From Escherichia coli (lineage in GTDB: Bacteria > Pseudomonadota > Gammaproteobacteria > Enterobacterales > Enterobacteriaceae), in the NCBI RefSeq assembly GCF_016903815.1, contig NZ_CP069973.1: 64,000 nt of DNA; one strand, written 5' to 3'. The notes under the pieces are model-generated. The model did no database searches and was not told the origin of the DNA. It saw nothing but the letters and a program-made list of their open reading frames with translations. Below, in pieces: positions 22,946 through 23,694 of this stretch; the stretch's first letter is position 1, and every line of letters starts with the position of its first letter. Made by a program: the position numbers and the translations under genes.

Positions 22946-23694
22946 GATTTACTCCCGACTGGCGTTTTCAGCCCGGAATAGTTCAACAGGCACCAGTTAG
23001 CCAGCGTCAGTATCTCTTCAGCCGCCAGCGCATCACTGCGATATTCACCGACTGGTTGCTTAGCCGCCAGGCATTCAGCCATCGCTTCATCACGATGAAT
23101 GAGCATCGGCAGTAATCGGCGCTGGCTTTGCAACCAAAGCTGGTAAATATCGTCCTGAACTTGACTGCCGATACGGAAGTCATTAATCAAAATATGCGCG
23201 CCATCCGGCAGCGCCTGCTGATGCAGCCGGATATGGCAGTTGGCATCCACATTGACGATTGCCAGCGAGTGATCGCACAAACTCAGCAGCTGGTGGGTTA
23301 TCTGCGAGGAATCACGCGGTAAGTCGATTAAAATTCACTGGTAACGCCCGCTGGCTTTTAGTTGCTGTAAGCCGGAGCAAATATCGCTCAGCCGGGTTTG
23401 CCAGTGCTGTGGATTTTCTTGTTCTTCAATGGATAACTGACCAAAAGGCAGCAAATCGAGCTGCGAGGTATAGCGCAACCCGGCGTCACGCCAGTCCTGG
23501 TCATCCAGCATAGCTCTGGCCCAGCCCTGACGGTGGGTAAAATCAACGTTAAATGACAGGCGCAACAAGTTGTCCGGGCAGGCATCGACCACCAGGACAT
23601 TTTCTCCCAGCATTTGTAATGACCAGGCTAATGCGGCGGTGATGGTTGTTGTCCCCACGCCTCCCCGCACCCCCTGCAATCCCAGTACGGCCAT
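22942..23694 (-). pseudogene. bcsQ: bcsQ (MinD/ParA-like ATPase) interrupted by an in-frame TGA at codon 120
   Basis: ORFs 23335..23694 and 22942..23280 are in the same frame and together span 753 nt; the only break is TGA at 23335..23337 (...GRYQ*ILIDLPRD...); codon 6 is TTG (23677..23679). Confidence 0.75.

Follow-up and report, generated by a model that had tools for sequence, protein, structure and literature searches.

The stretch of Escherichia coli DNA analysed here (64,000 bp; hereafter, the window) contains the bcs genes in the order bcsR-bcsQ-bcsA-bcsB-bcsZ-bcsC, divergent from bcsEFG, which is the context expected where BcsQ is present. On the minus strand, bcsQ occupies 22942..23694 (250 codons plus stop), and direct translation of 23694..22942 gives MAVLGLQGVRGGVGTTT...LKASGRYQ*ILIDLPRDSSQ...GSKS*, a frame that is broken at codon 120 by an in-frame TGA (23335..23337, minus strand). 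This TGA is the one internal stop among the 250 codons, and the frame then runs to its usual stop without a frameshift; re-translation of 22942..23694 reproduced exactly the codon-120 TGA, its coordinates and the otherwise clean frame reported in the first-pass annotation of this DNA. Codon 6 (23677..23679, minus strand) is an intact TTG, where alignment to K-12 shows TAG, and haplotype comparison identified a synonymous C at nucleotide 85 of bcsQ (C85; CTG, Leu29; 23610, minus strand) that is specific to the genomes carrying the codon-120 stop in this clade. The ATGA overlap between the bcsQ stop and the bcsA start, also described in the first reading, is present in the sequence at 22942..22945 (minus strand), the bcsQ TGA at 22944..22942 overlapping the bcsA ATG at 22945..22943. 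The surrounding genes are intact, namely bcsR (23706..23894, minus strand), bcsA (20327..22945, minus strand; 872 of 873 translated positions, stop included, the same as in K-12), bcsB and bcsZ (together 16864..20316, minus strand), and the divergent bcsEFG operon (24166..27601, plus strand). BcsR, A, B, Z, E, F and G are all full length, with 98-100% protein identity to K-12.

When codon 120 was read as Trp, the locus scored 538.6 bits against the BcsQ family model NF007460 (cut-off 399) and 297.3 bits against TIGR03371 (cut-off 157.85; covering positions 1-249 of 250), and the repaired protein matched the crystallised 250-aa BcsQ of PDB entries 6YBU and 6YAR end to end; the locus is therefore bcsQ. 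The 119-aa product, by comparison, scored 245.4 bits against NF007460 and 142 bits against TIGR03371, below the cut-off in both cases. A naturally short BcsQ ending at residue 119 was considered and rejected, as the family models and the crystallised proteins are 250 aa long with Trp120, and no reference BcsQ among them naturally ends at this residue. Codon 120 is TGG in K-12 (which has TAG at codon 6) and in strain GMF054, whose bcsQ is intact and differs from the window at four other positions, and crystallised E. coli BcsQ (6YBU, 6YAR and others) reads ...GRYQ-W-ILIDLPRD.... Because Trp120 is found in all three, the window allele is, on these comparisons, the derived one, having arisen from an ancestral TGG by G360A on the coding strand (Trp120 to stop; W120*). 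The earlier proposal of a single TGG-to-TGA nonsense change rather than a frameshift is borne out by the same three references together with the otherwise undisturbed frame.

A second lesion lies in bcsC (13799..16882, minus strand), which had gone unremarked in the first reading of the sequence. Compared to K-12, the gene measures 3,084 bp instead of 3,474 bp, and encodes 1,027 aa instead of 1,157 aa, owing to one in-frame deletion of 390 bp. In K-12, the 9-bp direct repeat GGCGCTGGC borders the deleted segment on both sides, and alignment to K-12 places the one remaining copy at the deletion junction in the window (15234..15242, minus strand); flanking repeats of this kind are characteristic of deletion by slippage or microhomology. 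BcsC residues 548-677, in the periplasmic TPR region, are removed, and the signal-proximal TPRs and the Pfam domain BCSC_C (residues 802-1136, the C-terminal outer-membrane/barrel domain) are kept. The shortened BcsC gives a match that is split into two stretches and is still above the BcsC family cut-off, which is why the deletion was left unflagged by PGAP.

A 61-mer centred on the bcsQ TGA was found exactly in 93 of 5,426 complete E. coli genomes, and the 851 bp around bcsQ matched many complete E. coli chromosomes at 100%; the 93 carriers are identical over the 61-mer, and at least 40 among the matches listed are identical over the 851 bp. The entire 64,000-bp window corresponds, with zero differences, to positions 3,968,964-4,032,963 of NZ_CP023820.1 (E. 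coli strain 7/2, from human faeces, Sweden). In this record PGAP already calls bcsQ a pseudogene, with the note 'internal stop', and bcsQ is the sole pseudogene-flagged feature in the two annotation tables that cover the window (25 and 33 rows).

The bcsC deletion was counted in the same genomes with a 45-mer across the junction, short enough that neither flank could seed a match by itself. The 45-mer occurred in exactly 93 of the 5,426 complete genomes. A chimeric query that joined a 35-mer with the bcsQ TGA to the bcsC junction 45-mer returned 99 genomes and 192 places, with both parts in 93 genomes and the TGA only in six. Similarly, a chimeric query for C85 and the bcsQ TGA returned both in 93 genomes, the TGA only in six, and C85 only in none. 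C at nucleotide 85 is limited to the 93 carriers, all other haplotypes examined having T, and neither a C85 haplotype with TGG at codon 120 nor an intermediate of the C85 clade with one lesion only was found among the 5,426 complete genomes. Linkage between C85, A360 in bcsQ and the bcsC deletion is therefore complete (93 of 93 complete genomes), and the three together provide a simple diagnostic marker set for the carrier clade.

The carriers include two strains with a published sequence type: strain 50579417 is ST405 (PMC6046176), and STO_Bone2, which has both lesions, is ST405 of phylogroup D (bioRxiv 10.1101/2022.05.07.487787); several further carrier records bear the name 'strain 405'. 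The 64-kb window contains no MLST locus, and its membership of ST405 is suggested by alleles identical to those of 50579417 and STO_Bone2. Taken together, these data make it highly probable that W120* is a vertically inherited nonsense mutation that has become fixed in one clade of ST405, a multidrug-resistant clone of phylogroup D.

Truncation of bcsQ and bcsC in ST405 is already published at the gene level, in addition to the PGAP annotation. According to the available parts of Nhu et al. 2024 (PMC10881479, Nat Commun 15:1441), in which 100 genomes of each of the 76 commonest sequence types were surveyed and a bcs ORF of less than 99% of full length was scored as truncated, 88% of ST405 genomes have 'truncated.bcsC + truncated.bcsQ' (Supplementary Data 3); bcsZ is truncated as well in a further 1% and bcsE in another 1%, and 94% have some bcs lesion. 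The same parts of that report map the ST405 bcs mutations to a distinct branch point, in line with clonal expansion. Under its definition of truncation, both window genes would be scored as truncated (bcsQ, 119 of 250 aa; bcsC, 1,027 of 1,157 aa), and the genotype that it gives (Supplementary Data 3 and Fig. 6) agrees with ours in the gene pair affected, in a clade with documented ST405 strains and in a frequency of about 90%. The lesions are given there at the gene level, as far as the available text goes, whereas they are defined here exactly as W120* and a 390-bp deletion; 'truncated.bcsC' is, in the carrier clade, an internal in-frame deletion, not a premature stop. A residue-level description of W120* or the 390-bp deletion was not found in the available text and supplements of PMC10881479, and this level of detail may be new. 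What is added here consists of the exact ST405 lesions, the finding that they are linked without exception (93 of 93 complete genomes), the marker set, and the occurrence of W120* on other backgrounds.

The lesion itself is an ordinary clonally fixed pseudogene, and adds to the instances in which successful extra-intestinal clones have convergently lost pEtN-cellulose. Nhu et al. 2024 (PMC10881479) describe a similar independent nonsense mutation, BcsQ Q178*, that is fixed in sub-clades of the extra-intestinal clone ST95, where cellulose loss raises inflammation and dissemination. Q178* differs from W120* in its position and lineage, and also in that the effect on virulence in ST95 was tested in animals, via bcsA repair. 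The ST405 event fits this published pattern of repeated cellulose loss in invasive or extra-intestinal E. coli clones, and the allele may confer a selective advantage.

BcsQ, an ATPase of the SIMIBI/MinD type, assembles with bound ATP into sandwich dimers that BcsR stitches together, and cellulose secretion has an absolute requirement for both BcsR and BcsQ (PMC7840130). In that work, calcofluor binding was reduced or abolished in N152, R156, N171 and D150 mutants, and BcsRQ affected the detectable level of BcsA. The last residue translated from the window allele would be 119, immediately ahead of the ILIDLP strand of BcsQ, leaving a product predicted to retain the deviant Walker A/P-loop (residues 9-17) and to lack the C-terminal half of the SIMIBI ATPase fold. 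The four residues D150, N152, R156 and N171 are all encoded downstream of the codon-120 stop and so are absent from the 119-aa product; they belong to the missing half, where they would build the ATP sandwich dimer. BcsQ function is very likely lost in the W120* allele, given that the essential residues are absent and that the 119-aa product falls below both family cut-offs. A split protein made by re-initiation was also considered and rejected: the TTG at codon 139 (22942..23280) has, by inspection only, no evident ribosome-binding site, and a fragment starting there would be without residues 120-138, including the ILIDLP strand, which is part of the core sheet. Since BcsQ is essential for cellulose secretion, the carrier clone is expected to be cellulose-negative or strongly attenuated. 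It is also plausible that bcsA is translated or transcribed less, with 393 nt upstream of bcsA left untranslated, and that the level of BcsA is lower in the absence of BcsRQ; bcsA has a GGGAG Shine-Dalgarno-like motif of its own, approximately 6 nt upstream.

Published phenotypes of ST405 touch on this prediction. The ST405 carrier Bone2 showed no Congo red binding at 28 or 37 °C (bioRxiv 10.1101/2022.05.07.487787), a result that is compatible with cellulose loss and that also implies an absence of curli, so that the effect of bcsQ is not isolated. By electron microscopy, biofilm matrix was seen in none of the 11 ST405-complex isolates studied (10 ST405, 1 ST964; Novais et al. 2013, PMC3695789). 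When the literature was searched for direct data on the cellulose phenotype of ST405, the Bone2 dye result and these microscopy data, both indirect, were all that it returned. The intact state of the other bcs genes could reflect a recent loss, or some retained function.

Beyond the ST405 clade, the G360A change occurs in a further six genomes, with two bcsQ haplotypes distinct from that of the window, and five of the six were examined. Four of these (PF9285, MSB1_9I, EC812A1 and CFSAN061762) have W120* together with an IS1 insertion in bcsE and a full-length bcsC (bcsQ at 9659..10411 and IS1 at 8200..8897, in coordinates of the compared locus segment), and their flanking bcs proteins largely match those of K-12. 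The bcsQ of the three that were aligned (PF9285, MSB1_9I and EC812A1; CFSAN061762 was left out) is K-12-like, with 17 other differences from the window. The fifth genome, PI24, represents a third haplotype, with 12 other differences from the window, a full-length bcsC and no other annotated bcs lesion. The phylogroup-A-like backgrounds outside ST405 share with the window the same G360A and an intact codon 6. The bcsQ markers nearest to W120*, at nucleotides 225 and 385, are not common to the window and the other W120* haplotypes, and a transfer of the mutation would consequently need a conversion tract of less than 160 bp; it is more likely, on this haplotype evidence, that W120* arose independently on the other backgrounds rather than by common descent.

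The PI24 and IS1-bearing genomes bear on the order of the two ST405 lesions. It is possible, and we give the idea appreciable if minority weight, that the bcsC deletion was the first loss-of-function event and the bcsQ stop a secondary decay in an already dead operon. The two lesions are linked in 93 of 93 genomes, with no intermediate among the complete genomes, which is compatible with either order, and the second W120* lineage likewise has a further bcs lesion, the IS1 in bcsE, in keeping with an operon in which lesions accumulate. However, the bcsC deletion is in frame, keeps the signal-proximal TPRs and BCSC_C, and is of uncertain effect, whereas BcsQ loses residues that are experimentally essential; moreover, PI24 has W120* with no other annotated bcs lesion, demonstrating that W120* can arise first.

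Of the stop codons in E. coli, UGA is the one read through most readily, and the near-cognate tRNA-Trp would insert Trp. The W120* allele might for this reason be a leaky one, in which read-through by tRNA-Trp supplies a little wild-type BcsQ, the clone being attenuated and the operon kept for conditional use; we consider this unlikely. TGG to TGA is the only type of nonsense change in which near-cognate read-through puts the original residue back, and the base after the bcsQ stop is an A (UGA-A), which is not the strongest termination context. The intact bcsR, A, B, Z, E, F and G would be in line with a leaky allele, although intact neighbours are expected anyway in a young clone, and there is no reversion of W120* in any of the 93 genomes. 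On the other hand, strains with wild-type RF2 usually show far less than 1% read-through, the same clade also has the 130-aa deletion in BcsC, and the ST405 carrier Bone2 lacks dye binding.

There are 102 single-step nonsense routes in bcsQ, of which 37 are transitions, and at least three origins of one such route are mildly notable. W120* could on this account be a preferred route, either through a local mutational hotspot or through selection for a leaky UGA or for an active 119-aa P-loop fragment, but we regard this as quite improbable. If the selection version were true, a UGA at a Trp codon would, for example, keep wild-type BcsQ at a low and tunable level.

Programmed recoding of the UGA at codon 120, as selenocysteine or by other read-through, has next to no probability: the sole point in its favour is that the bcsQ stop is a UGA, whereas the ancestral codon 120 is Trp in every other haplotype and the 3' flank is the same as in the TGG alleles. 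Recoding was accordingly rejected on the lack of 3' structure and the ancestral Trp codon, no SECIS-type hairpin having been found adjacent to the bcsQ UGA on its 3' side when folding was compared to 200 shuffles (-11.3 kcal/mol for the flank versus a shuffle mean of -11.6; z = 0.10; 101 of 200 shuffles folded as well or better). A sequencing or assembly error over a true TGG, which the first-pass annotation had named as the main alternative, is excluded for practical purposes, because 93 of the 5,426 complete genomes contain an exact copy of the 61-mer around the TGA; the same base recurs in these independently sequenced genomes of one clade and in six genomes of other backgrounds, it is perfectly linked to two further clade markers (C85 and the bcsC junction), and in an independent survey of draft assemblies about 90% of ST405 genomes have bcsQ truncated (Nhu et al. 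2024, PMC10881479).

The clonally inherited W120* also differs from the well-known bcsQ allele of K-12, in which codon 6 is changed from TTG to TAG and cellulose production returns once the SNP is repaired (Serra et al. 2013, summarised in PMC5944007). The two are alike in being single-base nonsense changes in bcsQ upstream of bcsA, and in raising the question of BcsQ loss versus polarity on bcsA, which PMC5944007 describes for K-12. They differ in codon (6 versus 120), in stop (TAG versus TGA) and in background (a laboratory strain of phylogroup A versus ST405); the K-12 bcsQ haplotype shows 19 nucleotide differences from the window, and K-12 is without the bcsC deletion. With TAG at codon 6 and TGG at codon 120 in K-12, against TTG and TGA in the window, the independence of the two alleles that was claimed at first reading holds. 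The K-12 codon-6 TAG allele was found in 349 of the 5,426 genomes, and the sampled records were mostly laboratory strains.

Two observations concern the K-12 strain ER2796. PGAP leaves its bcsQ unflagged, giving a 242-aa product from a start downstream of the codon-6 TAG (11697..12425), a handling that is inconsistent with the pseudogene call on the W120* allele. In addition, ER2796 has an IS5 between bcsE and bcsR (10102..11082).

Lastly, three tandem ldr/rdlD type I toxin-antitoxin modules are located between bcsG and yhjV in the window (27604..28962). The array has a period of 484 bp, 2.8 copies and 96% matches, and Rfam rdlD gives three matches in it, at 27844, 28327 and 28811. At the bcsG-yhjV locus there is one ldrD/rdlD in K-12, and GMF054, whose bcsQ is intact, has three copies; since the three copies are present in this intact relative too, the triplication is unlinked to the bcs lesions.
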